This document shows positions 18,808 to 59,166 of a DNA stretch of 64,000 bases, piece after piece. This DNA is from a bacterium. GTDB taxonomy: Bacteria; CG2-30-53-67; CG2-30-70-394. Under the pieces are notes generated by a model that was not told the origin of the DNA, ran no database searches, and was given only the letters and a program-made list of their open reading frames with translations. The position numbers and the translations under genes were made by a program. The DNA lies in contig JAJRSX010000183.1 of the NCBI GenBank assembly GCA_024278555.1, forward strand, positions 4,043 to 68,042, in the 5' to 3' direction. How positions within the stretch are numbered: position 1 is the first letter of the stretch; each line of letters begins with the position of its first letter.

Positions 18808-18832
18808 CGTCTCGCCGACGTGGGGCCGTAGG

Positions 18833-19033: not shown

Positions 19034-19042
19034 GGTGCGGAA

Positions 19043-22241: not shown

Positions 22242-22289
22242 GTAATGGGTTCGATGGCGTCGGCTATGTCGTCCGTTAAGGAGAGCGCC

Positions 22290-43916: not shown

Positions 43917-44203
43917 GAGCTTGGCACGCGCTCGTCATCAGGCCGCGCCTCCGGTTGCCCGCGCGGCCGAACGATCACCTCCAGCCCCAAGGTGCGCAAC
44001 GCCTTCAGCACCTTGCCGATCTCTGCGGTCTCCTTGCCCCGCTCGAGCTCGGAGAGAAATCGCACACTCAGATTACCCAGCCCCGAGATCACCTCCAGGG
44101 TCAGCTTTCGTTGCTTGCGGTGGGCGCGCAGCAGGTAGCCGAGCTCCTCGATCGTGCGGATGGGGCCGTAAGGGAGATCTGTCTTGGGCATGTGCGCCCT
44201 CAA
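43913..44203 (-). CDS. hipB: HipB-like XRE-family HTH antitoxin
   Basis: HTH motif RKQRKLTLEVISGLGNLSVRFLSELERGKE, located immediately upstream of hipA. Confidence 0.7.
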   Translation of the reverse strand: MRAHMPKTDLPYGPIRTIEELGYLLRAHRKQRKLTLEVISGLGNLSVRFLSELERGKETAEIGKVLKALRTLGLEVIVRPRGQPEARPDDERVPSS

Positions 44204-45484: not shown

Positions 45485-46311
45485 CCGAGTTTCCGACGCA
45501 GGTACCACAGCTTCGCCCGCTGGATCGGGTTGCGGTTGCCCCACGGCATTACCCCCTTCTTGTAGATCCTGCAGTAGGGATCGAACTGGAAGTAGCGGGG
45601 TGCGCAGGGCGGCCGGCCGCGCTTGAGGAGGATTCGGATCGCCTCGGTGGCCGCCATGCCGGCGCACAGGTCTGTGGCCAGCGCCAGCGAAGGCCCCTTG
45701 CCCGAGCGCAGGTCCACGTGGCCGAGGTCCATGTAGGCGAGCTGGGTTGCCCGGGGGGTGAGGCCGAGGGCGAAGCGGAGGCGTTGATCGAACACCTCCT
45801 GCCCATCGTGAATGTCGAAGTAGTCATCGAAGGTGGTCCCGCGGGGGTCAAACACCAGCATGGCGCAAGAGAAGCCGATGGGCCCCGCGGTGATTACGTA
45901 GATGCCACGCTCAGCGGCCTCCCGGAAGAGGAGTCGCCTGGCGTCGAGGGCGAAGAAGTCGAGTCCGTCCACCACCAGATCCACGCCGTCGAGGAAGGCA
46001 TCGATGTTCCCCGCGTGGATCCCCTCGGGAAAGGAGACCACCTCCGACTCCGGGTTGATCTTCGCCACCCACTCCGCCATCACCTCCACCTTCGCCCGTC
46101 CTACCGTATCCACGCTTGCCCCGAATTGGCGGTTGAAGTTCGCCTCCTCGAAGAGGTCGAGGTCGGCAAGGTGGAAGCGGCCGATCCCGAGGCGTGCGAA
46201 GGTGGCGGTGTGGATGCCACCGACCCCACCGAGACCTGGGATCGCGATGCATCGTGTCGCGAGCAATTGCTGCTCCACCTCATCGATCAGGCCACGATTG
46301 CGAGAGTACAC
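45481..46311 (-). CDS. ThiF/MoeB/HesA-family E1-like adenylyltransferase
   Basis: Nucleotide-binding motif IAIPGLGGVGG and E1-like Rossmann fold; 276 aa, no rhodanese or E2 domain. Confidence 0.6.
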   Translation of the reverse strand: MYSRNRGLIDEVEQQLLATRCIAIPGLGGVGGIHTATFARLGIGRFHLADLDLFEEANFNRQFGASVDTVGRAKVEVMAEWVAKINPESEVVSFPEGIHAGNIDAFLDGVDLVVDGLDFFALDARRLLFREAAERGIYVITAGPIGFSCAMLVFDPRGTTFDDYFDIHDGQEVFDQRLRFALGLTPRATQLAYMDLGHVDLRSGKGPSLALATDLCAGMAATEAIRILLKRGRPPCAPRYFQFDPYCRIYKKGVMPWGNRNPIQRAKLWYLRRKLG

Positions 46312-46393
46312 GGGCGGTCCGGGGTGGCGGGGGTGTTGCCTGGAGGCTCCCAGGGGAGGAGGGGAGAGGCTACGGCAAGAGGTCGATGATCAC

Positions 46394-46582
46394 TAGGAGC
46401 CTGTCGGACTTATGCACGATCTACTGCGGAAAAGCCGATCTCGGCCCGGATCGCGCCCCGCTCTTCGTTGCATCGAATCGCGGGCAGGAGCCCGCTCCTA
46501 CCGCTCCTCGAACGGGTCGCAATCCGGACTCGAGTCCGCTTTCCGTCGTGACGATCGCATAAGTCCGACAGACTCCTAGATC
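46394..46582 (+). mobile_element. MITE-like repeat copy C (best preserved, 22-bp TIRs CTAGGAG[C/T]CTGTCGGACTTATGC)
   Basis: The left end is CTAGGAGCCTGTCGGACTTATGCACGATCTACTGCGG... The right end ...CGCATAAGTCCGACAGACTCCTAGATC is its inverted complement. Confidence 0.75.
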
Positions 46583-46590
46583 GGCAACGT

Positions 46591-47895
46591 CTAGGAATCA
46601 ACCGCCAGCCGGTAGTACGCCTTCTGGTAATCGACACGGGTGGGGCGGAGTTCCATGGCGCGGCGGTACTCGCGCATCGCCGCGGCACGGTCTCCTTGAA
46701 GCTCGTAACACTTCCCGAGCCAGTAGGCGGCGCTGCCACTTTTCGGCTTGCCTGCGACCCGGCCTTCGGCGATCCGCAGGGCACGCCGCAGGTGGATCTC
46801 GGAGCTTTTCGCATTTCCGAGCTGTCGGTAGCTCCGTGCCAGGGAGAGGTTGGCGGAGACGCTCTCGCGCCCCCGTTCTCGCTTTTTCGCGATGCGTTTG
46901 AGGTCGAGGGTGATCGCCTGGACGAGGTACTTGCGGGCCACCTCTTTGTCGCCCAGGTGGCTGTAACAGTTGGCGAGCTTCCGGAGGATGGAGCACCGAT
47001 CCGGCTCCTGGTCATGGACCCGGCCGTAAAGATCGGCCGCCGTTTCCCACCGCTGGTAGCGCTCGTAGCGTCCGGCGAACTTCTCGAAGCCGTTGCTGAT
47101 TCGGTTGTCGATTCGTGCCCGGCCCTGGGGGGTGGCGTACGAGCCGTAGGTGGAGGCAGCGGCGAGAAGCGCCACCACCGCCACCGCGCCGGCGAGACGG
47201 GCGGTCAGGCCGACGGAGCTCCTCCCGGCACCCCCCTCTGTCTCGGTGGCGGCGTGGCCACGGTGGTCGTGCCAGTAGGTGATGGCCATGAGGGCGAGGG
47301 CGCACGAGATCAGCACCTCGGCGAGCTCTGCCTCGTTGAAGTGGAGGGGGCCGAGCTCGAGGACCGCCGCGGTGACGAAGAAGGGCCACAGGTGCGGGTG
47401 CGGCGGTGCCACCCCCAGGCGGTCAAGCCAGGCCGCCGGCGGGAATCGTAGGCGCACGGCAAAGGGGTAGATGGCGCCGTAGAGGACCATCCCGGCCGCC
47501 ATCAGGTACTCGATGGCCTGTTTGAGCGGGGTCGCGATGGGACCGGTGAAAAGGTTGTGGAGGTTGGCCTCGTGCTGGAGGTTGTGTTCCTGGAGCAGGG
47601 TGGGGGTGGCGAAGGAGAAGATGCGCTGGCCCCAGGAGATCTCCTCTCCCGAGACGTAGAAGAGAGACACGGCGAGGAGGGCGAAGTACCACCGGTAGGG
47701 GGAGCGCACCCGGGCGAGTCGGAGGGCGAAGAGGAAGGCGGTGGCGAAGAACCAGAACTGTGCCCACTCGCCGACGAGATCCTCGTAGGTCGCCCACAGG
47801 TAGGCGATCGTGAAGTAGGCCGCGAGGACCCCGTACAGGGTGACGATCGCGGCAAAGAGGAGGTAGACGAAGAGGACGGAGCTGCGTCGATTCAT
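46591..47895 (-). CDS. integral membrane protein with C-terminal TPR repeats
   Basis: About 8 predicted TM helices, followed by a TPR-like region (LANCYSHLGDKEVARKYLVQAITLD ... LGKCYELQGDRAAAMREYRRAMEL). Confidence 0.5.
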   Translation of the reverse strand: MNRRSSVLFVYLLFAAIVTLYGVLAAYFTIAYLWATYEDLVGEWAQFWFFATAFLFALRLARVRSPYRWYFALLAVSLFYVSGEEISWGQRIFSFATPTLLQEHNLQHEANLHNLFTGPIATPLKQAIEYLMAAGMVLYGAIYPFAVRLRFPPAAWLDRLGVAPPHPHLWPFFVTAAVLELGPLHFNEAELAEVLISCALALMAITYWHDHRGHAATETEGGAGRSSVGLTARLAGAVAVVALLAAASTYGSYATPQGRARIDNRISNGFEKFAGRYERYQRWETAADLYGRVHDQEPDRCSILRKLANCYSHLGDKEVARKYLVQAITLDLKRIAKKRERGRESVSANLSLARSYRQLGNAKSSEIHLRRALRIAEGRVAGKPKSGSAAYWLGKCYELQGDRAAAMREYRRAMELRPTRVDYQKAYYRLAVDS

Positions 47896-48012: not shown

Positions 48013-48044
48013 GAAAAAAAAGAGGCCCGCCGGAGCGGGCCTCT
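48013..48044 (-). terminator. rho-independent terminator (hairpin + U8 on minus strand) downstream of the giant repeat protein gene
   Basis: The minus strand reads GAGGCCCGC-tccgg-CGGGCCTC followed by TTTTTTTT. A second GC hairpin lies at 48057-48085. Confidence 0.65.
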
Positions 48045-48106: not shown

Positions 48107-51100
48107 CTACTTCACCGGGCAGAGGGGACCACCGTTACGGCTGTCGCCATCGACGACCTCGAAGTCACCGCGCACCAGTCCCGGGCCGATCGGCTGGGAA
48201 CAGCTCGTGTGGATCTTGGCGTGGAACTTTCCCTCCACGTAGATCTTGATCTCGGTGCCGAGGGTGCCCTTCTTGTCGTTCCCCACCAGGTTGATCAGGT
48301 CGCCCGGGACAACCGTGTCCTGGAAGACGCGGCTCCCCTTCTTCTGCTGCACCTCGACAAACGCCGCGGTGGCGCCGTTGTAGCGCAGGGTCAGGTTGGT
48401 CACCCTGCCGTCGCAGCCGCAGGCGGCCGGCGGAGTGGACGGCGGCTCAGGCATGGCGACATCTTCGGAGTCGCTGTCGCCGTCGCCGTTCGAATCCTCG
48501 CCGGAATCACTGTCCGAATCGGGGCAACCGGAGAGGGCCGCCTCGGAGTCGCTGTCGCCGTCGCCGTTGGTGTCGATCCCGGAGTCGCTGTCCGAGTCCC
48601 CCGCGCTGCTCGTACCGCAGGGCGAGTCCACCGGGCAGAGGAGCGAGAACTCACGGCTCGCACCGTCGACCACCTCGAAGTCACCACGGATCAGCCCCGG
48701 CCCGATGGGCTGCGAGCAGCTCGTGTGGATCTTCGTCTGCAGCTCACCGTTGACGTAGACCTTGATCTCCGTCCCCAGAGTGCCCTTCTTGTCGGTGCCG
48801 GTGAAGGAGAAGCTCATATTCGGATCGACATCCCCCTCGAAGACGACCGTGTGGTCCTTTTTCTCCTCCACGCGGATCGCCGCGGTGGCGCTACCGAGGT
48901 AGCGCAGGGTGAGGGAGGTCACCTTGCCCTCACAGCCACAGGGCTCTTCGGGCGGAGTCTGCTGGCAGGTGACCGTGGCCGTGTCCGTCGCCTCACACAC
49001 GGCACCGGTGGCCAAAGAGCCGGTCGCCGTTACCGTGTTGGTGGTGTCGGCGCAGACGGAGGCTACCTTCGAGACCGTCTGGCTCTCGCCGGTCGCCAGC
49101 ACCGGGATGGTGGCGACAACGCCCAGCTTGTCATCGACCACCTGCACGTTCGCCACCGGCGGCCCATTATTGGTCACCACGTAGGTGTAGGTGACGTTGT
49201 CGCCGGTGCAGGCGGGGGCCGGCGGAGGTGTCCCGCCGGTCGCTTCCGAGTCGGAGTCACCATCGCCATTGGTGTCGATGCCGGAGTCGCTGTCCGAGTC
49301 GCCGGGGAGTGCCTCGGAGTCGCTGTCGCCGTCACCGTTGCGGTCGATGCCGGAGTCGCTGTCCGAATCGCCCGGGAGGGCTTCCGAGTCGCTATCGCCG
49401 TCACCGTCGCGGTCGATGCCGGAGTCGCTGTCGCTGTCGGCCGTGCTGCCGGAGACATCCATAGCGCACAGCTTGCCGCCCTCCTTGCTCGATCCGTCGA
49501 CCACTTCGAAATCGCCACTTACCAGCCCCGGACCGATGGGCTGCGAGCAGCTCGTGTGGATCTTCGTGTGCAGCGCGCCGTTGACGTAGATCTGGATCTC
49601 CGTGCCGAGGGTCCAGTGCTTGTCGGTGCCGATGAAGGAGAAGATCTCTCCCGGTGCCACCGTACCGCTGAAGACCACGTCACCATCCTTTTTCTGCTGG
49701 ACCGCGACAAAGGCCGGGTCGCTGCCGTTGTAGCGCAGGCTCAGCTCGGTCACCTTGCCCTCGCAGCCACACTCGGCCGGCGGCGGGGGGGGAGTCGTGC
49801 AGTCAACGACCTCGGGAGAGGCGGTCTTCACCACCGTCAGATCACACGTCTCGATGGTACAGGTCGCCGAGCAGCCGTCACCGTTGATCGTGTTGCCGTC
49901 GTCGCACTCCTCGCCCACGTCGAGGATCCCGTCGCCGCAGGTGGGGTTCATGCAGTTGGCCTGGCAGCCGTCGCCATCGATATTGTTGCCGTCGTCGCAC
50001 TGCTCGGGCGGAGTGAGGATGCCGTCGCCGCAGAACTCGTTGCCGCAGTTGGCGTTACAACCGTCGCCGTTGACGTTGTTGCCGTCATCACACTGCTCAC
50101 CCGGGTCGAGGATTCCGTCACCACAGGCGGGAAGCCTGCAATCGGCCTGGCAGCCGTCACCGCTGATGTTGTTGCCGTCGTCGCACTGCTCGCCCGTGTC
50201 GAGGATGCCGTCACCGCAGAAGGGCAGGGAGCAATCGGCCTGGCAGCCGTCGCCGCTGATGTTGTTGCCGTCGTCGCATTGCTCGCCGGCATCGACGATG
50301 CCGTCGCCGCAGACGGGCAGGGCGCAGTTGGCCTGGCAGCCATCGCCGTTGATGTTGTTGCCGTCATCGCACTGCTCGCCGGCATCGGGGATCCCATCGC
50401 CGCAGCGCGGGTTCATGCAGTCGGCCTGGCAGCCATCGCCGTTGATGTTGTTGCCGTCGTCACACTGCTCACCGGCATCGAGGATCCCATCGCCGCAGCG
50501 CGGGTTCATGCAATTGGCCTGGCAGCCGTCACCGTCGATGTTGTTGCCGTCGTCGCATTGCTCGGGCGGAGTGAGGATGCCGTCGCCGCAGAACTCGTTA
50601 CCGCAGTTGGCGTTACAGCCGTCGCCACTGATGTTGTTGCCGTCATCGCACTGCTCGCCGGCATCGAGGATCCCATCACCGCAGATGGGATACATGCAAT
50701 TGGCCTGGCAGCCGTCACCGTCGATGTTGTTGCCGTCATCGCACTGCTCACCCGGGTCGAGATAACCATCGCCACAACGGGCGACCGTACAGTCGCTGTG
50801 ACAGCCATCGGTCTCGACCAAGTTGCCGTCATCGCACTCCTCGCCGGGATCGACGATCCCGTCACCGCAGACCGGCACGGTGCAGTCATTTCGGCAACCG
50901 TCCGTATTGTCCATATTGCCGTCATCGCACTGCTCGCCGGCGTCGACGATCCCGTCGCCGCAGAAGGGCAAGGTGCAGTCGTTACGGCAGGCGTCAAAAT
51001 TGTCCTGATTTCCGTCGTCGCACTCCTCGCCTGGATCGACGATGCCGTTACCGCAGACAGGAGTAATGATAGGATAAACGATGACCGGATCATTGCTCGA

Positions 51101-51961
51101 GAAATACCATGGAGAGGTTTCGTCGCCACTGTTGAGTACAGCGTCGAAGCCCGCAAAATCATTGTTTTGTTGCAACTCTGATGCCCCGACAAGATCCGTC
51201 AGTACCTGGGGAGTGGTGTCGCCAAGTTCGATCTCGTTCGGGTCATTCAAGCCGGAAAAGGCAAATCCGGTATTGTTCATGATGGCATTGAGTGCCAGTT
51301 GTGCATTGCCCACAAAGGCACCAAATGCGGCGTTAATGGGGACATGGCTATAGGCGAATCCATCGCTCGGATCGTTGTCGGCGCCGGCCCCGCAGCTGAG
51401 CCAAAGGAGGCCGTCTGTTGCCTTGGCAACATCGTCCATGAGGTTGGCTACGGTGATCTCAGCGCCCCGTCCCGGGGCGGTTCCTTTGCCGTTTGTGGGT
51501 ACCGTCCCGTTGAACTCAAAGGGCGTTGCTCCGGGTCCACTATCGTGCCAAATCCGGTACATTTCTCCAGCAGCCAGGTCGAGCTTGCCGAAGGGATCGA
51601 ACGTGGGCTGCCCAAGAGTCAGGTGAGGGTTGAGCCCGGGATTAGCAGAGAATGGATCTGGAGGTCCATCGATTGCGATGACCTTTTGTACAAAGTATCC
51701 GGTAAGCTGATCGGTTGCAGATTTAGTCCACGATGAAACGCCATTGGTGACGATCTCCTGGACATCGAGAATGCCAATAATGTGGTCACCGACCTCGATG
51801 GGAACTCCGGAAAACGGTGCTGAAAACAGGGTGCCATCGGCCTTGTAGAGCACTTCGAAATTCTTGAAAAAAATCTGGTTCGCGGCGTCAGGGACGAGCA
51901 CTTGGGCAGAGACCGGGGTTGAGGTTGCCCCCATAGTCAGAAGAAACAACACGAGCAACAT
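48107..51961 (-). CDS. large secreted repeat protein (~1284 aa): novel N-terminal domain + ~20 Myxococcus cysteine-rich repeats + three ~100-aa modules separated by Asp/Ser-rich Ca-binding-like repeats
   Basis: Signal peptide MLLVLFLLTMGATSTPVSAQ. Myxococcus cysteine-rich repeats of the form CGDGI(L/V)D.GEQCDDGNN..GDGCQA.C. The triplicated module is CGCEGKVT.L.LRY.G...A...V..KKD..VVF.G.V.P...F.F.GTDK.GTLGTEI..YVNG.L.TKIHTSCSQPIGPGL..GDFEVVDG. The SDSDSGID.NGDGDSDSE repeats resemble thrombospondin type 3-like calcium-binding repeats. Confidence 0.75.
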   Translation of the reverse strand: MLLVLFLLTMGATSTPVSAQVLVPDAANQIFFKNFEVLYKADGTLFSAPFSGVPIEVGDHIIGILDVQEIVTNGVSSWTKSATDQLTGYFVQKVIAIDGPPDPFSANPGLNPHLTLGQPTFDPFGKLDLAAGEMYRIWHDSGPGATPFEFNGTVPTNGKGTAPGRGAEITVANLMDDVAKATDGLLWLSCGAGADNDPSDGFAYSHVPINAAFGAFVGNAQLALNAIMNNTGFAFSGLNDPNEIELGDTTPQVLTDLVGASELQQNNDFAGFDAVLNSGDETSPWYFSSNDPVIVYPIITPVCGNGIVDPGEECDDGNQDNFDACRNDCTLPFCGDGIVDAGEQCDDGNMDNTDGCRNDCTVPVCGDGIVDPGEECDDGNLVETDGCHSDCTVARCGDGYLDPGEQCDDGNNIDGDGCQANCMYPICGDGILDAGEQCDDGNNISGDGCNANCGNEFCGDGILTPPEQCDDGNNIDGDGCQANCMNPRCGDGILDAGEQCDDGNNINGDGCQADCMNPRCGDGIPDAGEQCDDGNNINGDGCQANCALPVCGDGIVDAGEQCDDGNNISGDGCQADCSLPFCGDGILDTGEQCDDGNNISGDGCQADCRLPACGDGILDPGEQCDDGNNVNGDGCNANCGNEFCGDGILTPPEQCDDGNNIDGDGCQANCMNPTCGDGILDVGEECDDGNTINGDGCSATCTIETCDLTVVKTASPEVVDCTTPPPPPAECGCEGKVTELSLRYNGSDPAFVAVQQKKDGDVVFSGTVAPGEIFSFIGTDKHWTLGTEIQIYVNGALHTKIHTSCSQPIGPGLVSGDFEVVDGSSKEGGKLCAMDVSGSTADSDSDSGIDRDGDGDSDSEALPGDSDSDSGIDRNGDGDSDSEALPGDSDSDSGIDTNGDGDSDSEATGGTPPPAPACTGDNVTYTYVVTNNGPPVANVQVVDDKLGVVATIPVLATGESQTVSKVASVCADTTNTVTATGSLATGAVCEATDTATVTCQQTPPEEPCGCEGKVTSLTLRYLGSATAAIRVEEKKDHTVVFEGDVDPNMSFSFTGTDKKGTLGTEIKVYVNGELQTKIHTSCSQPIGPGLIRGDFEVVDGASREFSLLCPVDSPCGTSSAGDSDSDSGIDTNGDGDSDSEAALSGCPDSDSDSGEDSNGDGDSDSEDVAMPEPPSTPPAACGCDGRVTNLTLRYNGATAAFVEVQQKKGSRVFQDTVVPGDLINLVGNDKKGTLGTEIKIYVEGKFHAKIHTSCSQPIGPGLVRGDFEVVDGDSRNGGPLCPVK

Positions 51962-52056
51962 GGAGCGGTTCGTTTTCTGGTTGATCCTCACGGTGGATTC
52001 CTTTCTGAAAGGGTACGGCTGGAAGGTGAACGAGAGAAGAGCCGGTACTTGGTTCT

Positions 52057-52182
52057 GGGAGTCTGTCGGACTCGGCCCGGAAGGGCTTCGTAACTCATTG
52101 AAACCATTGCGTTCGTGTTTCAGAATCCAATGATGCACTTTCAATGAAAACAAACCCACATGGAGAAAATCCGACAGATGCT
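52057..52182 (+). mobile_element. MITE-like element copy E (same TIRs GGAGTCTGTCGGAC...ATCCGACAGATGCTC, different low-GC internal sequence)
   Basis: The terminal inverted repeats match the family, but the internal ~100 bp is unrelated and AT-richer. It lies ~100 bp upstream of the giant protein start. Confidence 0.5.
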
Positions 52183-52899
52183 CTCTGAAGTTGAACTCTC
52201 AATGTTCAATGCATGCAAGTTTGATGCCGTGTGCCGCGAGCCCCCCTCTGTCGAGGGCGTTGTGGCGGAGTGAAACCCTGAAAAATTATATAGTTGCAGG
52301 CAGCGCCTTTGGTGCCGTCCGGGTCCATTGAGGGGGGCGCTGTCGCTAATAGATACAGACAGCAGGAGTCGGGTCGCGAGTAAGTTGTAAACGCTGTGGA
52401 CACTTTACCGCCGTGCTATTGCATGGATGATGCTGCATTTCTCGTGTTTACCGCTAGTTATGGGCGCAAAGCAGTTGTTTATTTCTTTGACAGTTCTCCT
52501 CCCGGAGTTTTCTGGATGAGACGGGCGCGGCACATACGGCACACCGAGAAGAGGGCGCCGGAGTCGGTCGAGTCGTGGTGGCGATTGGCGACGATACAAG
52601 AATTGTTGCCGCCGGCCGCCGAGGGTGGTTGCCGAGGGTGGTTGTCGTTCAACCATTGCGAGGCTCAAGATTTGTCACGCCCGGTTTCCCGGAGGTACGC
52701 GATAGTGGAGGATGTCCGGCCCATGGAGGTTTCGCAGATGAGCCACGTGCGGGGGCAGAGGGGGGCTTCGATCCCATCAATGGGCGCGGGGGCTGGCCGT
52801 GTGGCGACCGACGTGTTTTCCGGAGTCGCCGTGCTGCCGCGTCGATCGGCGGAGCCGGAGAGCCGGCGATGGGGGAATGCAATCGCTCCCCAGCTCTTG

Positions 52900-53030
52900 T
52901 CAGGGGGCTTTCGGACCTGGCCCCGATCTACTGCGAAAAGAGGGATTACGGACCCGGTCGCCATCCCGCCCTACGGCGCATGGGCCTCCTGCGTTCCGAG
53001 AAGGGGAGGCAACCCGGACTACGAACCCGT
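52900..53030 (+). repeat. partial/divergent MITE-family copy D
   Basis: ...TTTCGGACCTGGCCCCGATCTACTGCGAAAAGAGGGATTACGGACCCGGTCGCCATCCCGCC... shares the core GATCTACTGCG(G/A)AAAG with the other copies. Confidence 0.45.
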
Positions 53031-53382
53031 TTCACGTCGTGCCGATCGTCAGACCACAGCAGCCTCTTGGGCGAGCCACAGGTTACGGCGCCCAGGGACC
53101 CGGATGTGCCGAGCTGCCGTTCGGAAGGAGATACTGTCGTGCTCGAACGAGGAAAAAGTTCGTGAGGTAGCCGCTACACGGGTGAATGCTCTGGCCGATC
53201 CCCTCTAGATCTGAGATGGCTGCCAGCCGCTCACCATCAACACCCGCCTCATCGCCTATGAGGAGAAGTAGATCGTTCGTGTGTGGATCTTCAGCCGTAG
53301 AGCCATATAACCCAATCCTGCGCGTCCATGAAGCTATCACTATACAGACGATCAGCTGAGTGATAGTGAAGGAGAACAAGGT

Positions 53383-55032
53383 TTGACGAACTACAAACAT
53401 TTCGACGTGTGCATCGTCGGCACCGGTGCTGCTGGAGGGATTTTGGCTCACGCACTAGTGCGCTCTGGTTTGCGTGTCGTTTCTCTGGAGCAGGGGGAAA
53501 TTGTCAACCAGGATGAATTTCACAATGAACTAACCCCGGAGCAGAAAGGAAACTTCGGAATCACGAGGAACACCAAGTTTCCAGAAGTAGACCCGGACGT
53601 TCTTCAGCATGGTTTGTATGCGGGGCTGAGTACAAGGTCAACCTCTTCCGGGAGTGAGTCTGTTTTTAAGCAGTATCAAATCTACGCAGTAGGTGGTCTC
53701 CAGAATCTGTGGAGTGGCGTGAGTGTTAGATTTTCCCCGAGTGATTTCAGCACCAGAGTGCTTGGTCTTGAAGGACCTGATTGGCCGATTGACTACAAGG
53801 ACATTGCGGATCATTACGAGGCTGTTGAGCGCCGTATCGTGGTCTGCGGTACACGAGAGAATCTCGCGGACATTCCGGATGGTAAGTTCATTCCTCCAAA
53901 GCCATTACGACCGCCAGATCTACTCGTTGCCGGTGCGATTGAGCGATGTTCCGGTGGCACAGTGAAAGCAGTTCCATGCCGAAAGGCCGTGGAGACGCGG
54001 AAGGACAGGGGAAACGCATGTAGTAGCTGCGGGCACTGTTACGAGGGGTGTCAGCGTGGAAGTGTATATACATTCGGCAGCAGGCTGTTGCCGGAAATAC
54101 AGAATAAAGAGAACTATCTGCTAAAGCAAAACGTAAAGGTCGTGGCGCTGCGCTGCGGAGCATCAAACGCCATCTGTGGCCTTGACTGTATAGATGTCAA
54201 GACGCTGCGTCGGTTCAGCGTAGAGGCAGGTCTATACATAATGTCTGCTGGCGCCATCGAAACGCCCCGGGTGCTGCTGAATTCGGAATCGTCTCGTTCG
54301 GGATGCGCAGTCGCAAACGGGTCTGGTCTGGTAGGACGGTATCTTCAGGATAACCCAAGCGTTATGTACGGCGGATCGTTGATGAAGTTGTGGGTACGAG
54401 GCGTACCATACGATGTCGGATATGGTGAGCACATGCTCATCTCTGGCGTCTTGGGAGATGCGGGGGGCAGCGACGTCGACGAGGAATTTTCGGTATTTGG
54501 TCAGCTGTACCATGACTTCTGTAGGGAGCCGCTGTATTTGAAAGATATTTACTGGCTGCCATCGTGGTTGCGGTCGGTGGTCGCGAAAAAGATATTTGGG
54601 AGCACGATTGGTCTCGTGTTGTGGTCCTCGGCCGATCCATCAAGAGAAAACATGCTCACTGTTTCAGACGAGCGGGACTGTTATGGGGTTCGTAAAGTTG
54701 ATGTTTCTTACGGCTGCTCACAACTGGAGAGCGCAAGGATGGCGGTGCTGCGTAAATTCTCCAGACGCGTCATGAAAAGGGCATCGGCGTTGGTTTCTGT
54801 TGAGCTCCCGAGGCCTCCTGGTTCCGGTATCCACTATGTCGGAACGTGCCGTATGTCGGACGCGGAAGAACAAGGTGTCGTCGACAAGAACCTCAAGGCG
54901 CACAACCATCCAAACCTATATATTTGCGACGGTAGTGTCTTGCCAACATTACCCCCAAAACACTGCACACTGACGATAATGGCGCTCGCCGACAGGCTGG
55001 CAGAGCATCTGATATCCCTGCAGAAGGAATAG
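53383..55032 (+). CDS. GMC-family FAD-dependent oxidoreductase (TTG start)
   Basis: An FAD-binding N-terminus (DVCIVGTGAAGGILAHAL) and a GMC C-terminal region (IHYVGTCRMS), in visibly lower-GC sequence than the flanks. Confidence 0.75.
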   Translation: MTNYKHFDVCIVGTGAAGGILAHALVRSGLRVVSLEQGEIVNQDEFHNELTPEQKGNFGITRNTKFPEVDPDVLQHGLYAGLSTRSTSSGSESVFKQYQIYAVGGLQNLWSGVSVRFSPSDFSTRVLGLEGPDWPIDYKDIADHYEAVERRIVVCGTRENLADIPDGKFIPPKPLRPPDLLVAGAIERCSGGTVKAVPCRKAVETRKDRGNACSSCGHCYEGCQRGSVYTFGSRLLPEIQNKENYLLKQNVKVVALRCGASNAICGLDCIDVKTLRRFSVEAGLYIMSAGAIETPRVLLNSESSRSGCAVANGSGLVGRYLQDNPSVMYGGSLMKLWVRGVPYDVGYGEHMLISGVLGDAGGSDVDEEFSVFGQLYHDFCREPLYLKDIYWLPSWLRSVVAKKIFGSTIGLVLWSSADPSRENMLTVSDERDCYGVRKVDVSYGCSQLESARMAVLRKFSRRVMKRASALVSVELPRPPGSGIHYVGTCRMSDAEEQGVVDKNLKAHNHPNLYICDGSVLPTLPPKHCTLTIMALADRLAEHLISLQKE

Positions 55033-55066
55033 GTAATGACGGTGTCGCGCGTGGCGAGAGAATGTA

Positions 55067-56056
55067 ATGCTGTATGGTAAGATTCGCGGTTTGGATAAGC
55101 GGGCCTCGCGATTGGTCCTGGGTACGGATTCTCTGTGGCTGAATCCGTTTCATAGGGTTTTCGGTAGGTTAGAGAAATGTAGTTGTTTGAATATTCTCGA
55201 TGTTGCAGTGGAGGTTGGTATTAACACGTTTGATACAGCCGCTGTGTACGGGAGTGAGCCGCTAATCGGGTCCTGGATCAGATCCAGAGGATGCCGTGAC
55301 GAAGTTGTCGTTGTGACGAAGTGTGGTCACCCAAGCCTGATTACAGGTCGTTCGCGTACCTCATTGCGGGCTGTCACTGCCGATATCCACAGGTCTCTCA
55401 GGCGGCTCGATCTTTCTGAGATAGATGTCTTGCTGATGCATTACGACGACGACGAAATCGAGGTTTCCGAGATTGTCGGTTGGTTAGAGATGCACAGGGT
55501 CGCGGGGAATATTCGATGCTATGGGGTGTCGAATTGGGATGGTTATCGTATACGTGAGGCGCACAGGTGTGCGGCGGATAATGGTGCCAGCGGATTGGCG
55601 GCCGTCAGCGCGTACTGTGGCTTGGTTGAGTGGACGCAGCCAATGTGGCCGAAAGCCAAGAGCCTCGCGGGCAGGCAGGGAGAGGAGACTCTTGAATATT
55701 GCAGCCAGCATGGGATTTCCATCCTGGCGTGGTCCCCATTGTCTGCGGGCTACCTGTCTGGAAGGACAACCCACCCGAGAGGGTGGGTGAGGAAAAGGCG
55801 GTATTCTCAGGCGCAGCGGATTTTTGATTGTGAGGACAATAGAAAAATCCGACAGAGGGTCGAGACGCTGGCGGACCGGCACGGTGTCGGTAGTGCAGAG
55901 ATCGTGCTTGCCTATTTGTTAGGGAGCAGAAAAGAGGTGTTTCCGATAATCGGTTGCGGGACCGCGGAACATATAAGAAGAAATGCAGCCGCGGTTTCGG
56001 TTGATCTCAGCATGGAAGAGATGCGCTGGCTTGATGTGCAGTCGGTTGATCTCTAG
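55067..56056 (+). CDS. aldo/keto reductase family oxidoreductase
   Basis: AKR fold motifs (INTFDTAAVYG, VVVTKCGH, and LSEIDVLLMHYDD, which matches the AKR LDLYLIHxPD-type motif region). Confidence 0.7.
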   Translation: MLYGKIRGLDKRASRLVLGTDSLWLNPFHRVFGRLEKCSCLNILDVAVEVGINTFDTAAVYGSEPLIGSWIRSRGCRDEVVVVTKCGHPSLITGRSRTSLRAVTADIHRSLRRLDLSEIDVLLMHYDDDEIEVSEIVGWLEMHRVAGNIRCYGVSNWDGYRIREAHRCAADNGASGLAAVSAYCGLVEWTQPMWPKAKSLAGRQGEETLEYCSQHGISILAWSPLSAGYLSGRTTHPRGWVRKRRYSQAQRIFDCEDNRKIRQRVETLADRHGVGSAEIVLAYLLGSRKEVFPIIGCGTAEHIRRNAAAVSVDLSMEEMRWLDVQSVDL

Positions 56057-56438: not shown

Positions 56439-57635
56439 CTACGGAGTGATGACCACGGTATCGGTGGTGGAGCGAAGTTCATAGCAGATTCCGCGCCAGC
56501 AGATCCTACGTGTTCCAAGGGAGTAGAGGGTGTTGATCAGGCTAAGTAATGAAGCGATTGGCGCCGCGAACATGTAGTGAAATCGGAGGCGTGAAAGCTC
56601 TTCGTTTAGTTGGGGTAACAAGTTCTGAATGGGCTTTAAGAGAAGCGCCGCATTGGCGATCTCCAGAGGGGCGAGGAGCAGGCACAGGGTACCGATTGCG
56701 GAGGTTTGCCCTCCATTGGTTACCCAAATCAACAGGCTGACGACGCCGTAGAAGAGTAGGAGGTTGGAGGCCGAGTGGGCAATTGCTGCGCCCCACCACA
56801 AGGGAGGGAAATAGACACGCGATATAACCGATTGACGGTTGGTAAACTCTATGGTGTCGGCGAGCGTGGAGGCTTCGTAGGAGACAGCAATGCAGGTCGG
56901 TACGAAGTGAAGTTGTAGCCCGAGTTCCCGTACGCCGAGAGTGAAGGGGAAATCATCGGAGACAGCGTACTCCCAGCGCTGGGCGATTCTTGCACGTCTG
57001 AATGTGTCGTACCGGATTGCCATTGCGCCGCCCCAGGCGAAGTTGCGTTTGGGGTCGACCAAGAAGGGAAGGGCGCCGGCGTTCCACGTGCTTCGCAGGA
57101 TGGAGCCGAGGGTGGGGCGAGGAGGGTGGTACCAGCGAAAGCCGGTGGTGGCGCCAACTTGGGGGTTGGACAGGGGAACGATGAGCCGACGGACGAAGCC
57201 GGCATCGGGGCGAATGTCCGAGTCGAGGAAGACGAGGTATTCGGTGTCGTGGGGGGCCTCGCGCAGGGCAGCCAGTTGGTTGGTGAGTTTTTGTGCCCGT
57301 CTGTTGTTGACGCCGGCAACGATGAGTTGGGTATCAACCGTGGTGTCCTGCAGGAGTTTTTTGAGTGTCGAGTGGGCGGGATCCTCTGCGTGGGCGACGA
57401 CAAAAATAAGATGTATGGACGGATAGTCTTGCTGGAGGAAGGCGCTGATGTTTTCTCGGAATCCCGGGTCCAGCCCCTTGCAGGGGATGATGAGAGTTGC
57501 CAGTCCATCGGGTGGTGTGGGGTCTTGCGTAGGGACGACTCGGATGCGACGGCGGAAGGAGAGTGTGAGAAGCAGGGGAATCGACCCCATGAGGAGGGTC
57601 AAGACCAGAGGGATCATACTCAGATGGATAGACAT
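56439..57635 (-). CDS. GT2/GT21-family membrane glycosyltransferase (ceramide-glucosyltransferase/HpnI-like)
   Basis: N-terminal TM segment, GT-A motifs (IIPCKG, FLDSDIRPD), and multiple C-terminal TM segments. Confidence 0.6.
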   Translation of the reverse strand: MSIHLSMIPLVLTLLMGSIPLLLTLSFRRRIRVVPTQDPTPPDGLATLIIPCKGLDPGFRENISAFLQQDYPSIHLIFVVAHAEDPAHSTLKKLLQDTTVDTQLIVAGVNNRRAQKLTNQLAALREAPHDTEYLVFLDSDIRPDAGFVRRLIVPLSNPQVGATTGFRWYHPPRPTLGSILRSTWNAGALPFLVDPKRNFAWGGAMAIRYDTFRRARIAQRWEYAVSDDFPFTLGVRELGLQLHFVPTCIAVSYEASTLADTIEFTNRQSVISRVYFPPLWWGAAIAHSASNLLLFYGVVSLLIWVTNGGQTSAIGTLCLLLAPLEIANAALLLKPIQNLLPQLNEELSRLRFHYMFAAPIASLLSLINTLYSLGTRRICWRGICYELRSTTDTVVITP

Positions 57636-57707
57636 GGCGGCTTTCCGTGGCGTGCGAGTCAGACCGCGACACTGAAAGCCTTATCGGCGGATTTCTTCGA
57701 CAGAGCA

Positions 57708-57746
57708 AAAACAAAAAAGGAGGGGCGACCTTCGGGCCGCCCCTCC
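57708..57746 (-). terminator. rho-independent terminator downstream of PEP-CTERM gene
   Basis: The minus strand reads GGAGGGGCGGCC-cgaa-GGTCGCCCCTCC followed by TTTTTTGTTTTT. Confidence 0.6.
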
Positions 57747-57771
57747 TCGGGAACACACGCTGTCGGGGTGA

Positions 57772-58860
57772 TTACCGCCGCTGCCGACGGGCGACGCCCG
57801 CCAGTCCAACGAGGCCGAGGCCCATGAGGATCACGGTGCCAGGCTCTGGAATGCCCGTGGGGGCGACAAGGACTGGATCGTTGGAGGCGAAGTACCAGGG
57901 AGACGTCTCGTCGCCCGTGCCCTGCCACGCACCGCCCATGAACGCACCGAGGTTCGCATCGAATCCGGCGAAGTCGTTGTTCTGGGTGAGTTCGCTATTG
58001 CCTACCAGGTGGTATCCGGGAGCAACACTGCGGCCATCGGTTCCCACCTCGTTGGGGTCGACCAAGTCTCCCCACATGTAGCTGGGGACGTTAAGGATGT
58101 TGTCCATTGCAAGCCATGCTTCACCCGCGAAACCGCCAAAGGCGGAGGCAATGGGAAGATGGCTGTAGGCGAAGCCGTCCGTGTCATCACCGTCGGCTCC
58201 GACGCCGAAGCTCAGCCAGGCGGTACCGTCGGTGGCCTTGTCCACATCGTCCTTCAGGTTGGCGGTCGTGACCTCGGCACCGAGGCCGGCACCCAGGCCC
58301 ACGCCGTTAACCGGGACCGTGCCGTTGGACTCGAAGGGGGTGGCACCGGCGCCGCTGTCCACGTAGAACCGCATCATCTCGCCGGCAGCCAGATCCAGTT
58401 TGCCAAACGGGTCGAAATCAGACGTCCCAAGCTCAAGATGGGTGTCGGTCGGGCTCCCTGGCACCGGTGCGGTGCTTGTAATCTTCTGCACGAAGTAGCC
58501 GGAGAACTGGTCCGTATTGGATTTATTCCACGTAGTAACACCGTTGACCGTTATCTCCTGGACGTCAATGATCCCCACCAGATAGTCGCCGGCCTGCGCC
58601 TGGTGGCCGCCATGGGCCACCGCAAAGGGATCGGTCAGAAGATTCCCCGCTGAATCGTAGAGAACCTCGAAGTTCTTGAAAAAGATCTGGTTGTTGTTCC
58701 CGAACGAGAAGCTCGGCATGGCCTGGGCGGTGGTGCTCACCGCCAAACCTGCCGCCAGGGCGGCGGGTGCGAGGAATAGGTGTTTCTTCATGATGGTTCT
58801 CCTTTTGATGGGTTGTGGATCGCCCGTGGTTGGGAACTGCGATTGAGTGAATACACCCAC
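57772..58860 (-). CDS. PEP-CTERM sorting-domain protein; N-terminal ~330 aa homologous to the N-terminus of the 48107..51961 protein
   Basis: The C-terminus is ...GIPEPGTVILMGLGLVGLAGVARRQRR (PEP motif + TM + basic tail). The shared N-terminal motifs are NQIFFKNFEVLY, FSGYFVQK, FDPFGKLDLAAGEM, GFAYSH(L/V)PI, and SPWYF.SNDPV. Confidence 0.8.
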   Translation of the reverse strand: MGVFTQSQFPTTGDPQPIKRRTIMKKHLFLAPAALAAGLAVSTTAQAMPSFSFGNNNQIFFKNFEVLYDSAGNLLTDPFAVAHGGHQAQAGDYLVGIIDVQEITVNGVTTWNKSNTDQFSGYFVQKITSTAPVPGSPTDTHLELGTSDFDPFGKLDLAAGEMMRFYVDSGAGATPFESNGTVPVNGVGLGAGLGAEVTTANLKDDVDKATDGTAWLSFGVGADGDDTDGFAYSHLPIASAFGGFAGEAWLAMDNILNVPSYMWGDLVDPNEVGTDGRSVAPGYHLVGNSELTQNNDFAGFDANLGAFMGGAWQGTGDETSPWYFASNDPVLVAPTGIPEPGTVILMGLGLVGLAGVARRQRR

Positions 58861-59166
58861 TCATGCAGATTGCGTGCCAGGTCGTGGGTGAGTTTCGGGT
58901 TGTGCGTCGGAGTTGTTGTAACGCATTGGTATTATTAGATTTAGATGCGGTTCACTTGGGTGCGCGAAGGGCGAGACGCGATTTCTGCTCCCCGGCGATG
59001 GCCGCCGGAGAGGAAAAATTGGAAAGGATGTCGACATGTCTATCGGGAAAAATGGCGGGAGGTCTGTTAAAGCCTTAAAAATCAATGCGTTAGTGTGTGT
59101 AAAGGGAGTCGACATTGGCCTCAGTGTTGCTGACATGGGGGTGGGAACGACTTATTCCGCAAGGAG

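Follow-up and report, generated by a model that had tools for sequence, protein, structure and literature searches.

A domain shared by a giant Cys-rich-repeat protein and a PEP-CTERM protein, and the low-GC stretch between their genes

Results

Genes and features of the locus

We analysed a 64-kb window (64,000 nucleotides) of a bacterial contig, to which all positions refer. A minus-strand gene at 48107..51991 encodes a giant, putatively secreted protein of 1,284 amino acids, counted from an ATG at 51961. A GTG at 51991, with an AAAGGA Shine-Dalgarno sequence 8 nt to its 5' side, appears to be the more likely start. The translation contains a signal peptide, an N-terminal domain (aa 21-302; 51056..51901, minus strand; delimited by BLASTP), thirteen Cys-rich DUF4215/TIGR02232 repeats of 31 aa (93 bp each; 49847..51055, minus strand) and three DUF7467 modules separated by acidic Ser/Asp-rich linkers, plus one DUF11/DUF7507-like domain. 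Pfam matches are DUF4215 at 2e-87 (13 stretches) and DUF7467 at 6.4e-38 (3 stretches), and NCBIfam TIGR02232 matches at 4.7e-109; the repeats were delimited by a repeat search and compared in a per-repeat table and identity matrix. The giant protein has no C-terminal sorting signal of the LPXTG, MYXO-CTERM or PEP-CTERM type. A hairpin and T-run resembling an intrinsic terminator (48021..48044, minus strand) lie 3' of the gene, and directly 3' is the gene for a TPR protein (46591..47895, minus strand) with only a weak PrsT-like match.

The second gene of interest (57772..58794, minus strand) encodes a 339-aa PEP-CTERM protein, identical to P0001 of an NCBI-derived collection. Its layout comprises a predicted signal peptide (ending …TTAQA and followed by MPSF), a domain at aa 25-313 and a sorting signal at aa 315-339, which scores 27.3 bits against PF07589 (cut-off 20.7) and 24.7 bits against TIGR02595 (cut-off 16). 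An AAGGAG Shine-Dalgarno sequence lies 7 nt 5' of the ATG. About 70 nt upstream of the start codon is a sigma-54-type -24/-12 element, TGGCACGCAATCTGC (58865..58879, minus strand), a consensus match only, with one mismatch to TGGCAC-N5-TTGC; this type of motif has been reported upstream of PEP-CTERM genes (PMC1569441). A strong intrinsic terminator with a 14-bp stem, 10 G-C pairs and a T-run (57717..57748, minus strand) separates the gene from a downstream glycosyltransferase gene. The same hairpin sequence occurs 3' of the orthologous genes in loci L012 and L014; in L011, whose contig stops at this point, only the 5' arm is seen. No exosortase gene was seen within the 64-kb window, so processing of the 339-aa protein by an exosortase is assumed.

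The downstream gene encodes a GT2/GT21 glycosyltransferase (56439..57635, minus strand; Pfam), HpnI-like but below the NCBIfam cut-off (HpnI 2.4e-27). Between it and the giant gene lie plus-strand genes for a GMC oxidoreductase (53383-55032) and an aldo-keto reductase (AKR; 55067-56056), all three as named in the preliminary description and assigned here with Pfam. Upstream of the PEP-CTERM gene is an RND/MMPL transporter gene (HAE3-type, HpnN-like; 59167..61689, minus strand), with a GC3 of 0.90. Farther to the left are a ThiF-family E1-like gene (45481-46311, minus strand; ThiF 4.2e-44) and, on its 3' side, a tandem-nitroreductase-like gene (Acg/Rv1355c C-half; 44414-45667, minus strand; PRK14851, Rv1355c and Acg matches). 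A plus-strand ORF at 45238-46389 was rejected as an antisense shadow, with GC1 (0.81) exceeding GC3 (0.64). Two plus-strand FeeM-like genes of the N-acyl amino acid synthase type (39677-40507 and 40752-41573) match the N-terminal region of PRK14852 at 3.9e-30 and 5.9e-20, respectively, and their homologue in L002 matches Pfam FeeM at 4.1e-51. A perfect TGGCAC-N5-TTGC stands upstream of the second (40673-40687).

The stretch upstream of the giant gene (52058..53052, plus strand) is non-coding and carries MITE remnants. The ORF at 52396-53208 has no match in Pfam or NCBIfam and is probably spurious. The MITE, a palindrome of about 190 bp, has three good copies in the window (10863-11036, 38440-38610 and 46395-46584). 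The two further copies proposed at the edge of the low-GC stretch do lie near its left edge, but the one is a diverged copy (52899-53052) and the other a lone terminal fragment (52058-52071).

The N-terminal domain and its family

The N-termini of the two proteins are 55% identical (163/294; BLASTP E 7e-91), and the motifs earlier quoted as common occur in both translations. The common part consists of a signal peptide of about 22-24 aa and about 285 further residues, giving an N-terminus of about 305-310 aa rather than the ~330 aa first suggested. The description of the domain as uncharacterised holds: the shared domain found no match in Pfam-A or NCBIfam, a domain-family profile found none among PDB sequences, and the 131 sequences aligned (129 from databases and the two from the window) gave no Pfam match over the domain region. 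The family is small: of 1.84 billion representatives, 322 clusters matched at E<=1e-3. The nearest relative of the giant's domain is at most 57% identical. A search for the domain in other PEP-CTERM proteins was productive, since 119 of the 129 sampled database members (92%) carry PEP-CTERM.

An AlphaFold model based on the 131 sequences (pLDDT 87.6, pTM 0.88) confidently predicts a core formed by an allene-oxide-cyclase/dirigent-like beta-barrel. Modelling thus yielded a barrel core and no known family for the whole domain: Foldseek returned no significant global structural match, and the barrel matches are to generic 8-stranded barrels that cover about 40% of the domain at 2-10% identity. 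In an alignment of 11 sequences, Q71, E114, D164, Y185, D221, E224, N247 and N280/D281 are invariant polar residues, and S186 and H187 are nearly invariant (>=90%); the 131-sequence alignment contains no strictly invariant column. Because the fold match spans so little of the domain at such low identity, "ligand-binding barrel" would be a weak label, and the invariant polar residues might just as well belong to a catalytic or metal site.

Related loci and long-format homologues

We compared the neighbourhood with eight other loci, from Geobacter, Nitrosovibrio, Rhodoferax, Thiobacillus, Omnitrophota and gamma- and betaproteobacterial MAGs. In six of them, the domain gene has homologues of the ThiF and nitroreductase-like genes no more than 10 kb away. 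Also nearby are FtsX permeases (7/8), ABC ATPases (7/8), LolA-like genes (6/8), FeeM (5/8) and DUF1302 (4/8), together with PIG-L and glycosyltransferase genes, and an exosortase gene lies 2 kb from that of P0009. In distant bacteria the domain gene sits in exosortase/PEP-CTERM loci with Lol-like ABC genes; the Lol-like ABC, LolA-like, DUF1302 and PIG-L genes are absent from the 64-kb window. The preliminary description had the two paralogs simply flanking an island. Instead, both belong to a larger PEP-CTERM-associated locus that includes the FeeM-like, ThiF, nitroreductase-like, TPR and RND genes.

With L012, a related metagenomic contig, added, the synteny comparison separates the genes of the low-GC stretch. 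In L012 (70% identity, GC3 0.91) and in the gammaproteobacterial MAG locus L006 (61%), a homologue of the GT2 gene comes directly 3' of the domain gene. Because GT2 keeps that place, the pairing of PEP-CTERM gene and GT2 gene is ancestral to the lineage, and GT2, as a conserved partner in two other loci, is thus not island cargo. The GMC and AKR genes adjoin no other family member in any of the eight loci. The best GMC homologues are 48% identical (Legionella), and, in place of an AKR, they are accompanied by a DegT aminotransferase and MFS transporters.

The domain also occurs in other long proteins, namely P0011 and P0124 (with DUF4215), P0151 (DUF7507 and DUF7467) and P0015 (SdrD_B and DUF7507). 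In the Geobacter locus L001, a short form is directly followed by a long form with DUF7507/DUF11 and DUF7467. The junction at which the giant's domain passes into DUF4215, SNDP-x4-P-x2-4-CG[DN]GIV, recurs at the equivalent position in P0011 and P0124, which are 30-38% identical, and it is at this point that the PEP-CTERM signal of the short form begins. The fusion of domain and DUF4215 is accordingly not a local invention, its architecture being older than this genome.

Composition of the low-GC stretch

The lower GC content proposed for roughly 51.0-57.65 kb is real, and the profile is not flat on computation. GC is 0.552 at 51001-57650 and 0.665 in the rest of the window; this is the lowest-GC 6.65-kb stretch, the next lowest outside it having 0.626. 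GC3 is 0.56 for GMC, 0.59 for AKR, 0.60 for the giant's N-terminal domain, 0.69 for GT2 and 0.75 for the PEP-CTERM gene, against 0.90-0.97 in the housekeeping genes of the window. The RND/MMPL gene is host-like and marks the right end of the anomaly. Codon usage gives the same picture: the correlation with host core genes is 0.95 for the C-terminal half of the giant, 0.63 for its N-terminal domain and 0.49 for GMC and AKR together.

Within the giant gene, maximum likelihood places a GC3 change-point at codon 322 (window position 50995, minus strand), in the first DUF4215 repeat and about 20 codons beyond the domain boundary. GC3 is 0.60 before this codon and 0.85 after it (Fisher p 4e-19). Repeats 1-3 form a separate subtype (CRNDCT/CHSDCT) with GC3 of 0.74-0.81, and repeats 6-13 have 0.84-0.94 except for repeat 11 (0.74). 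We infer that the change-point at about 50995 is a recombination breakpoint. Because the C-terminal half is host-like and the N-terminal domain, GMC and AKR are not, a recombinant, mosaic gene is the simplest reading.

The low-GC stretch is probably foreign DNA. Its clearly foreign-looking core consists of GMC and AKR with the giant gene's 5' end, and the GMC-AKR pair (53383..56056), as the compositional core, is likely the true cargo. In related loci the orthologues of the PEP-CTERM and GT2 genes have GC3 of 0.82-0.91. The copies here fall below the host's GC3, and the acquired mosaic may for this reason be larger or older than proposed.

Discussion

On balance, we favour the following account as a probable one. 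The shared region would be an extracellular domain, about 285 aa long and not described before, with a beta-barrel core, characteristic of PEP-CTERM (exosortase-sorted) envelope proteins and present in two formats within a PEP-CTERM-associated locus, of which the low-GC stretch is a mosaic derived from foreign DNA. In the commoner short format, exemplified by the 339-aa protein, signal peptide, domain and PEP-CTERM follow one another, and the protein would be exported by Sec and then presumably cleaved by an exosortase and anchored or released. In the rarer long format, to which the giant belongs, the domain would form the N-terminal tip, and DUF4215, DUF11/DUF7507, DUF7467 and the acidic Ser/Asp-rich linkers would form a stalk that is rich in repeats and disulfides and probably binds Ca; the giant has no sorting signal. 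Recombination would have brought in the GMC-AKR operon together with the 5' end of a long-format homologue, with one breakpoint in the first DUF4215 repeat at about 50995. The PEP-CTERM and GT2 genes would be old residents of this type of locus whose copies here are also somewhat GC-poor.

The preliminary description instead treated the whole of 51.0-57.65 kb, with the N-terminal domain, GMC, AKR and GT2, as a single acquired adhesin-plus-modification cassette, and the giant as a new chimera with native Myxococcus-type repeats. The continuity of the low-GC stretch, the GC3 step within the giant gene, the restriction of host-like codon usage to the giant's C-terminal half and the MITE remnants close to the left edge all fit this view. 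We nevertheless consider it unlikely: GT2 travels with the PEP-CTERM gene in L012 and L006, GMC and AKR are missing from all eight related loci, and the stretch has none of the marks of an island, be it an integrase or other mobility gene, a tRNA or flanking direct repeats. What stands of the acquisition is thus a strong compositional anomaly that begins, on its left, within the giant gene. The GC3 and codon-usage step likewise speaks for a chimera, but the recurrence of the junction in distant homologues means that a chimeric event, if there was one, exchanged part of an architecture already in place rather than creating a new fusion.

Two further readings dispense with acquisition. A local mutational bias, or relaxed selection on native accessory genes of low expression, would suit the form of the anomaly, which is a gradient and not a box (GC3 0.75, 0.69, 0.65, 0.59, 0.56, 0.60, ~0.76, 0.87), and other accessory genes also fall below core GC3 (CRISPR-Cas 0.71-0.78; genes at 38.6-47.9 kb 0.77-0.86). 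It is very unlikely to suffice, given that values of 0.56-0.60 against 0.90-0.97 lie far beyond the spread of other genes, the shift occurs inside one ORF within a few tens of codons, the relatives' PEP-CTERM and GT2 orthologues are less depressed, and the codon usage of GMC and AKR correlates only poorly with that of host core genes. An assembly artefact joining the DNA of two organisms within the DUF4215 repeats is the least probable account we considered. A tandem repeat array is a classic misassembly site, and the giant and GMC proteins are absent from a collection of 5.8 billion protein clusters in which the PEP-CTERM protein of the same contig is present. However, host-like DNA flanks the low-GC stretch on both sides (the giant's C-terminal half and the MMPL gene), which an artefact could explain only by two independent misjoins. 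The reading frame continues unbroken through the junction, repeats 1-3 grade into the later ones in sequence and GC3 without an abrupt switch, and the genome's own MITE family has left remnants in the stretch.

As the locus encodes FeeM, ThiF and nitroreductase-like proteins, a TPR protein, a lipid-type GT2/GT21 glycosyltransferase and an HAE3 RND transporter, the domain most likely acts as a binding head for something in the envelope or matrix that the neighbouring genes make, for example an exopolysaccharide, a glycolipid or a lipoamino acid. Proteins carrying it would probably contribute to a surface layer, biofilm or floc matrix. That the domain is instead an enzyme acting on an envelope lipid or glycan, whether AOC/dirigent/pericyclase-like or hydrolytic, is distinctly unlikely: the many invariant polar residues among the 11 aligned sequences suit it, but none persists as a strictly invariant column among 131, the barrel matches are generic, and positions at the tip of an adhesin-like stalk and before a PEP-CTERM anchor are more typical of binding modules.

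The 8-stranded barrels of AOC, dirigent proteins, PodA and bacterial Diels-Alderases resemble the domain over about 40% of its length at 2-10% identity, with no sequence-profile match to a PDB chain and no significant Foldseek match. The giant resembles Myxococcus-type Cys-rich acidic repeat proteins (TIGR02232/DUF4215) and MSCRAMM-like Ser-Asp repeat adhesins in its 13 repeats, its DUF11-type domain and its acidic Ser/Asp-rich linkers, which match SdrC/SdrD/ClfB far below cut-offs (35-39 bits against 999-2500), so that we rejected its assignment as an MSCRAMM. It also differs in that it lacks LPXTG, MYXO-CTERM and PEP-CTERM signals and bears an N-terminal head otherwise typical of PEP-CTERM proteins.

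A link between N-acyl amino acid synthases and PEP-CTERM/exosortase systems has been described (Craig, Cherry & Brady 2011, J Bacteriol 193:5707, as cited in PMC4897644). In NCBIfam, PRK14852 stands for a protein in which FeeM, ThiF and nitroreductase are fused; in the window, two FeeM-like genes occur with split ThiF and nitroreductase-like genes, and most related loci carry this module close to the domain gene. As cited in PMC4897644, the 2011 work concerns the synthases and not the domain family, of which we found no published description, the full text of Craig et al. aside. Small, secreted, RpoN-controlled and matrix-contributing PEP-CTERM proteins of floc-forming bacteria, such as PepA (NF033554; Aquincola/Zoogloea, PMC9850573), offer a plausible functional analogy for the short protein, which is unrelated to PepA in sequence (E 0.047; 13.5 bits against a cut-off of 80).

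The closest parallel is the PEP-CTERM/exosortase system itself (XrtA/EpsH; Haft et al. 2006, PMC1569441). The short protein has its signal peptide and a PEP-CTERM above both curated cut-offs, the sorting signal prevails in the family, and family loci contain PrsT-like TPR proteins, glycosyltransferases and, in one case, an exosortase. The sigma-54-like element resembles those of proteobacterial PEP-CTERM genes (PMC1569441), and the N-terminal part, as is usual for PEP-CTERM proteins, matches no recognised domain. Set against this, the window has no exosortase gene, the domain also occurs on long repeat proteins without PEP-CTERM, and it is a distinct family conserved across phyla with a predicted fold of its own. 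What is new is therefore an unnamed domain family within a kind of system, PEP-CTERM/exosortase, that is already known.

A shared N-terminal domain with no described family

The giant Cys-rich-repeat protein (1,284 aa counted from the ATG at 51961; gene 48107-51991, minus strand) and the short PEP-CTERM protein (339 aa, gene 57772-58794, minus strand) have a common N-terminal region. BLASTP aligns the two N-termini with 163/294 identities (55%, E 7e-91), and all the motifs quoted in the preliminary description are found in both translations. The length of ~330 aa given there does not hold. Because each protein opens with a typical Sec signal peptide, the shared module is ~285 aa, or ~305-310 aa with the signal. 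Read off the sequence, the signal peptides are (M)RINQKTNRSMLLVLFLLTMGATSTPVSA before Q in the giant and MKKHLFLAPAALAAGLAVSTTAQA before M in the short protein. The short gene (ORF 57772-58860) starts at the ATG at 58794, with an AAGGAG Shine-Dalgarno sequence ahead of it. For the giant gene (ORF 48107-52159), the GTG at 51991 is the more likely start, judging from an AAAGGA Shine-Dalgarno sequence 8 nt upstream.

The shared domain had been described as matching no recognised domain, and database searches agree. Neither Pfam-A 2025 nor NCBIfam 20.0 has a match over the domain in either protein at E<=1, a family profile found no PDB chain at E<=1 when searched against PDB sequences, and no Pfam model matches over the domain in any of 131 aligned sequences. 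A word-indexed search of 5.8 billion clusters returned only 10 relatives, every one PEP-CTERM-sized. When 1.84 billion representatives were searched exhaustively with a profile, 322 passed E<=1e-3 and 119 passed E<=1e-30, the majority being 300-360 aa long; the resulting family count of ~320 is one of clusters at 50% identity. The domain is present in other PEP-CTERM proteins, with a PEP-CTERM signal in 119/129 sampled database members and a VPDSG-CTERM signal in two. A search for closer relatives of the giant's domain yielded only the P0001-P0004 clade, at 54-57% identity. The short protein is itself in the 5.8-billion-cluster collection, as P0001 (NCBI). The giant and the GMC oxidoreductase have no entry there, not even a near-identical one; either gene may lack annotation in the source record or be marked there as a pseudogene.

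Short and long forms

The short protein consists of the signal peptide, the shared domain and a PEP-CTERM signal (PF07589, 27.3 bits against a cut-off of 20.7; TIGR02595, 24.7 bits against a cut-off of 16). Its C-terminal end, IPEPGTVILMGLGLVGLAGVARRQRR, has the defining PEP motif, then a hydrophobic helix, with basic residues clustered at the extreme C-terminus. No exosortase was found among the scanned ORFs of the window. Strong terminator-like hairpins end both the giant and the short gene, and the sequence of the short-gene hairpin is kept after orthologs in the metagenomic contigs L012 and L014; in L011 only its 5' arm is visible owing to the contig end. Consensus matching places one sigma-54-type -24/-12 element with a single mismatch at 58865-58879, ~70 nt upstream of the short gene, and a perfect one at 40673-40687, upstream of the second FeeM-like gene. 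Both are intergenic, where such elements are expected. Sites with two mismatches are not above chance (63 observed vs 57 expected), and only sites with at most one mismatch, rightly placed between genes, count as leads.

In the giant, the signal peptide and shared domain are followed by 13 tandem 31-aa Cys-rich repeats of the DUF4215/TIGR02232 type (PF13948 2e-87, TIGR02232 4.7e-109), which have the characteristic tandem ~31-aa arrangement and Cys pattern CGDG…C.DGN…DGC…C. The distal part comprises three DUF7467 modules (6.4e-38) with acidic Ser/Asp-rich linkers between them and one DUF11/DUF7507-like domain. No C-terminal sorting signal, PEP-CTERM included, was found in its translation or with Pfam and NCBIfam models.

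Long proteins are a minority of the family. P0011 and P0124 carry DUF4215, P0151 carries DUF7507 and DUF7467, and P0015 carries SdrD_B and DUF7507. In the giant, as in P0011 and P0124, SNDP-x4-P closes the domain, and a DUF4215 repeat (CG[DN]GIV…) begins a few residues on; in the short form the PEP-CTERM signal starts at this same point. The preliminary description had envisaged the giant as possibly a chimera of an acquired N-domain and native repeats. The identical junction occurs in P0011 and P0124, whose domains are only 30-38% identical to that of the giant, and the domain-DUF4215 architecture therefore long predates this genome. The pairing of a short and a long form is likewise found elsewhere: in a Geobacter MAG locus (L001) a short form has, directly behind it, ORFs for the domain with SdrD_B and then for DUF7507/DUF11 and DUF7467, matching the arrangement in the window.

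Two further observations concern the long forms. At 9905-16323 of L001, the short gene precedes two long ORFs that overlap and are read in different frames (10889-12703 and 12475-16323). Since these jointly resemble one giant protein with domain, SdrD_B, DUF7507, dockerin-like and DUF7467 parts, the record suggests a frameshift or assembly error. The long proteins P0018, P0020, P0022 and P0124 also have in common an extra C-terminal Cys/His-rich module (motifs CRMTGG…GGQIGAP…W(E/T)H…H…CxDPGxC…) without a Pfam match, which looks like a second undescribed domain travelling with the head domain.

Predicted fold of the shared domain

An AlphaFold model built from the 131-sequence alignment is confident (pLDDT 87.6, pTM 0.88). 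Its fold matches are soluble eight-stranded barrels, namely pyocyanin demethylase, a DUF3224-like protein, bacterial Diels-Alderases, AOC-like and dirigent proteins, and PagL. The AOC-barrel-like or dirigent-like fold is defined by a closed eight-stranded antiparallel up-and-down barrel with a central ligand pocket. Structural modelling, which the preliminary description had suggested, gave a likeness at the barrel core; Foldseek found no significant match to the model in the PDB. The domain is predicted to consist of a common barrel core plus ~170 more residues without a solved counterpart.

Conserved neighbourhood of the family

A genome scan turned up distant relatives only, giving eight loci with family genes (Geobacter, Nitrosovibrio, Rhodoferax, Thiobacillus, two Omnitrophota and gamma/beta-proteobacterial MAGs); we compared them by clustering all their ORFs. 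Locus L002 is that of Nitrosovibrio sp. Nv6, a culturable carrier. FtsX-type permeases and an ABC ATPase each recur in 7/8 loci, a ThiF gene with a nitroreductase-like gene in 6/8 as well as in the window, a LolA-like protein in 6/8, a FeeM-type acyltransferase in 5/8 and DUF1302 in 4/8. PIG-L deacetylases, glycosyltransferases and PrsT-like TPR proteins of ~940 aa also recur near family genes, the latter at full length in L002, L005 and L006, and an exosortase gene lies 2 kb away from the gene of P0009. FeeM, ThiF and nitroreductase-like genes are found near the domain gene in L002, L004, L005, L008 and others.

The window has the same combination, a FeeM-type synthase with ThiF and nitroreductase-like partners near PEP-CTERM genes. 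It holds two FeeM-like genes (39677-41573), ThiF (45481-46311, minus strand, Pfam 4.2e-44) and a tandem-nitroreductase-like gene (44414-45667) that matches the C-terminal halves of PRK14851 and Rv1355c. An HAE3/HpnN-like RND gene and a TPR gene whose 434-aa product has a weak PrsT-like match (TIGR02917 5e-09, 34.6 bits against a cut-off of 312) belong to the same locus. We treat the FeeM, ThiF and nitroreductase-like genes as one module because NCBIfam PRK14852 unites all three parts in one protein of 989 aa. They are separate genes in the window and in most related loci, and fused counterparts exist in some organisms, either as PRK14852 or as the ThiF-nitroreductase fusion PRK14851/Rv1355c; the fusions therefore argue for a single pathway. 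The PEP-CTERM system itself has been described (PMC1569441), and the passage of PMC4897644 citing Craig et al. 2011 reports that synthases of N-acyl amino acids are genetically linked to PEP-CTERM/exosortase systems.

One apparent conserved neighbour was rejected. The ORF at 45238-46389 (plus strand, 383 aa) has "homologs" in five other loci, but its GC1 (0.81) exceeds its GC3 (0.64) and the ThiF match is on the opposite strand. The ORF is an antisense shadow, cast by ThiF together with the 5' end of the nitroreductase-like gene, and shows that ORF-based synteny calls for care where GC is high. A HipA-family toxin gene (42666-44203, minus strand; HipA N-terminal domain 6.4e-20) and a small upstream ORF (43913-44203), likely a toxin-antitoxin pair, lie between the nitroreductase-like gene and a gene for a patatin-like phospholipase (41519-42505).

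A compositional mosaic between the two genes

The lower GC that the preliminary description reported between the two genes is borne out: GC is 0.552 at 51001-57650 vs 0.665 in the rest of the window, and the profile is not flat. This is the window's lowest 6.65-kb stretch (next lowest 0.626). GC at third codon positions (GC3) is 0.90-0.97 in the core genes dnaK, proS, acs and MMPL, 0.82-0.86 in the FeeM/ThiF/TPR block, 0.75 in the PEP-CTERM gene, 0.69 in the GT2/GT21 glycosyltransferase gene (GT2, 56439-57635, minus strand), 0.59 in the aldo-keto reductase gene (AKR, 55067-56056, plus strand) and 0.56 in the GMC oxidoreductase gene (53383-55032, plus strand). Within the giant gene, GC3 steps from 0.60 in codons 1-300 to 0.85 in the remainder (Fisher p 4e-19), with the maximum-likelihood change-point at codon 322 (~50995), inside the first DUF4215 repeat. 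By sequence, repeats 1-3 form a subtype of their own, and their GC3 is intermediate (0.74-0.81). Codon usage correlates with that of host core genes at r 0.95 for the C-terminal half of the giant, 0.63 for its N-domain and 0.49 for GMC and AKR together. The low-GC core is thus unlike the host in both respects (GC3 0.56-0.60 vs 0.90-0.97; r 0.49-0.63).

Horizontal acquisition, as proposed in the preliminary description, is supported by this composition and codon usage but not by mobility signatures at the borders. There is no tRNA in the window, there are no flanking direct repeats, and no integrase or transposase domain was found in the ORFs scanned. MITE copies had been placed at the edge, and remnants do occur near it, in the gap of 1.4 kb of non-coding DNA upstream of the giant gene; they are decayed and amount to one diverged copy (52899-53052) and one solitary end (52058-52071). 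The element is a palindrome of ~190 bp with ends GGAGYCTGTCGGAC…GTCCGACAGACTCC and has three well-conserved intergenic copies (10863-11036, 38440-38610 and 46395-46584); its 14-nt end motif occurs 7 times vs 0.44 expected. An ORF in the same gap (52396-53208, 270 aa) was discarded as probably spurious, having no family match and overlapping a MITE remnant. The only close relatives found are metagenomic contigs of 1-2 kb, which show the PEP-CTERM gene and GT2 to be a conserved pair but all end short of the GMC/AKR position. The best GMC homologs are 48% identical (Legionella); DegT aminotransferase and MFS transporter genes neighbour the nearest of these, and the GMC-AKR pair is not conserved around them.

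GT2, which the preliminary description counted in the acquired cassette, is not cargo. In L012 a GT2 gene of 70% identity (GC3 0.91) directly follows a short-gene ortholog of 66% identity, and in L006 a GT2 of 61% identity is in the same position; the order PEP-CTERM gene, terminator, GT2 is therefore ancestral. GC3 of the window's short gene and GT2 nonetheless falls below that of their orthologs (0.75 and 0.69 vs 0.82-0.91), so the mosaic may be larger or older than its GMC-AKR core.

Several origins of the mosaic can be weighed. Faster amelioration of repeated DNA fails to explain the GC3 step because the single-copy DUF11-like segment is also host-like. A misassembled contig we consider very improbable, because MITE remnants are present within the low-GC stretch and the DNA on either flank is host-like. 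The simplest account is recombination that, with the repeat array as homology, would have swapped the 5' end of a resident long-format gene for a foreign allele and carried in the divergently transcribed GMC-AKR pair. We infer transfer into the stretch from its composition alone. Overall, the interpretation in the preliminary description is partly supported. The low-GC stretch is an ordinary, though neatly delimited, compositional mosaic. The intragenic step would be a clean case of recombination inside a repeat array rebuilding the gene of a surface protein, and matters chiefly for annotation and for studies of adhesin evolution.

A second GC dip, at 20-22 kb, is due to a CRISPR array. It accompanies a complete type I-G CRISPR-Cas system (11113-20788 and 21265-22264) with Cas3g, Csx17/Cas8g1, Csb1, Csb2 and a Cas4g/Cas1g fusion; in the array the 36-nt repeat ATTTCCGCAGCGTTAACGCTGCGGCCCCATTGAAGC occurs at least 14 times, and GC3 of the cas genes is 0.71-0.78, under that of the host core. 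Elsewhere in the window, downstream of a TAT-type nosZ (551-2380), the ORF at 2484-5795 (plus strand, 1,103 aa) matches NosR at residues 37-663 and NosD at residues 699-1068, an apparent NosR-NosD fusion or an over-extended ORF.

Proposed role and relation to known systems

Both proteins would be exported by Sec. An exosortase whose gene lies elsewhere in the genome would presumably process the short form at its PEP-CTERM signal, and the product would then stay in the envelope or matrix or be released into it. In the long form, a disulfide-rich and probably calcium-binding stalk would carry the shared domain at its far end. The domain itself is probably a head that binds some envelope or matrix component produced by the locus, and would play a part in a surface layer, biofilm or floc matrix. 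This reading draws on the barrel core, on the domain's place at the tip of adhesin-like proteins, and on neighbouring genes that serve to make or move lipids and glycoconjugates (those for N-acyl amino acid synthases, a GT21/HpnI-like transferase, PIG-L, and Lol-like and RND exporters). The residues Q71, E114, D164, Y185, D221, E224, N247 and N280/D281, invariant in an 11-sequence alignment of the domain, and the almost invariant S-H pair (with H187) that comes after Y185 would suit an enzymatic role instead, which we regard as improbable.

The binding-head proposal has a more specific extension. Lol-like ABC, LolA-like, DUF1302 and RND lipid-export genes and the FeeM module co-occur with the family across phyla, and the family could be their dedicated partner, the barrel binding the locus's N-acyl amino acid-derived (glyco)lipid or the exosortase joining protein to lipid. 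We hold this to be a long shot; if true, it would provide a tractable handle on what PEP-CTERM proteins attach to after exosortase cleavage.

The domain family is compact, confidently modellable and absent from Pfam, NCBIfam and the PDB, and would merit a new family entry. In Proteobacteria, Geobacter-like bacteria and Omnitrophota it is a marker for one conserved sub-type of exosortase/PEP-CTERM locus. Through its close association with N-acyl amino acid synthase, ThiF, nitroreductase-like and Lol-like genes, the family is a concrete candidate for work on what such surface systems, still poorly understood, build. Neither the family nor the GC3 mosaic overturns current understanding. The shared domain is a new, unnamed family rather than something categorically new, and it sits inside a known system, that of PEP-CTERM surface proteins in exosortase- and N-acyl-amino-acid-synthase-associated loci.
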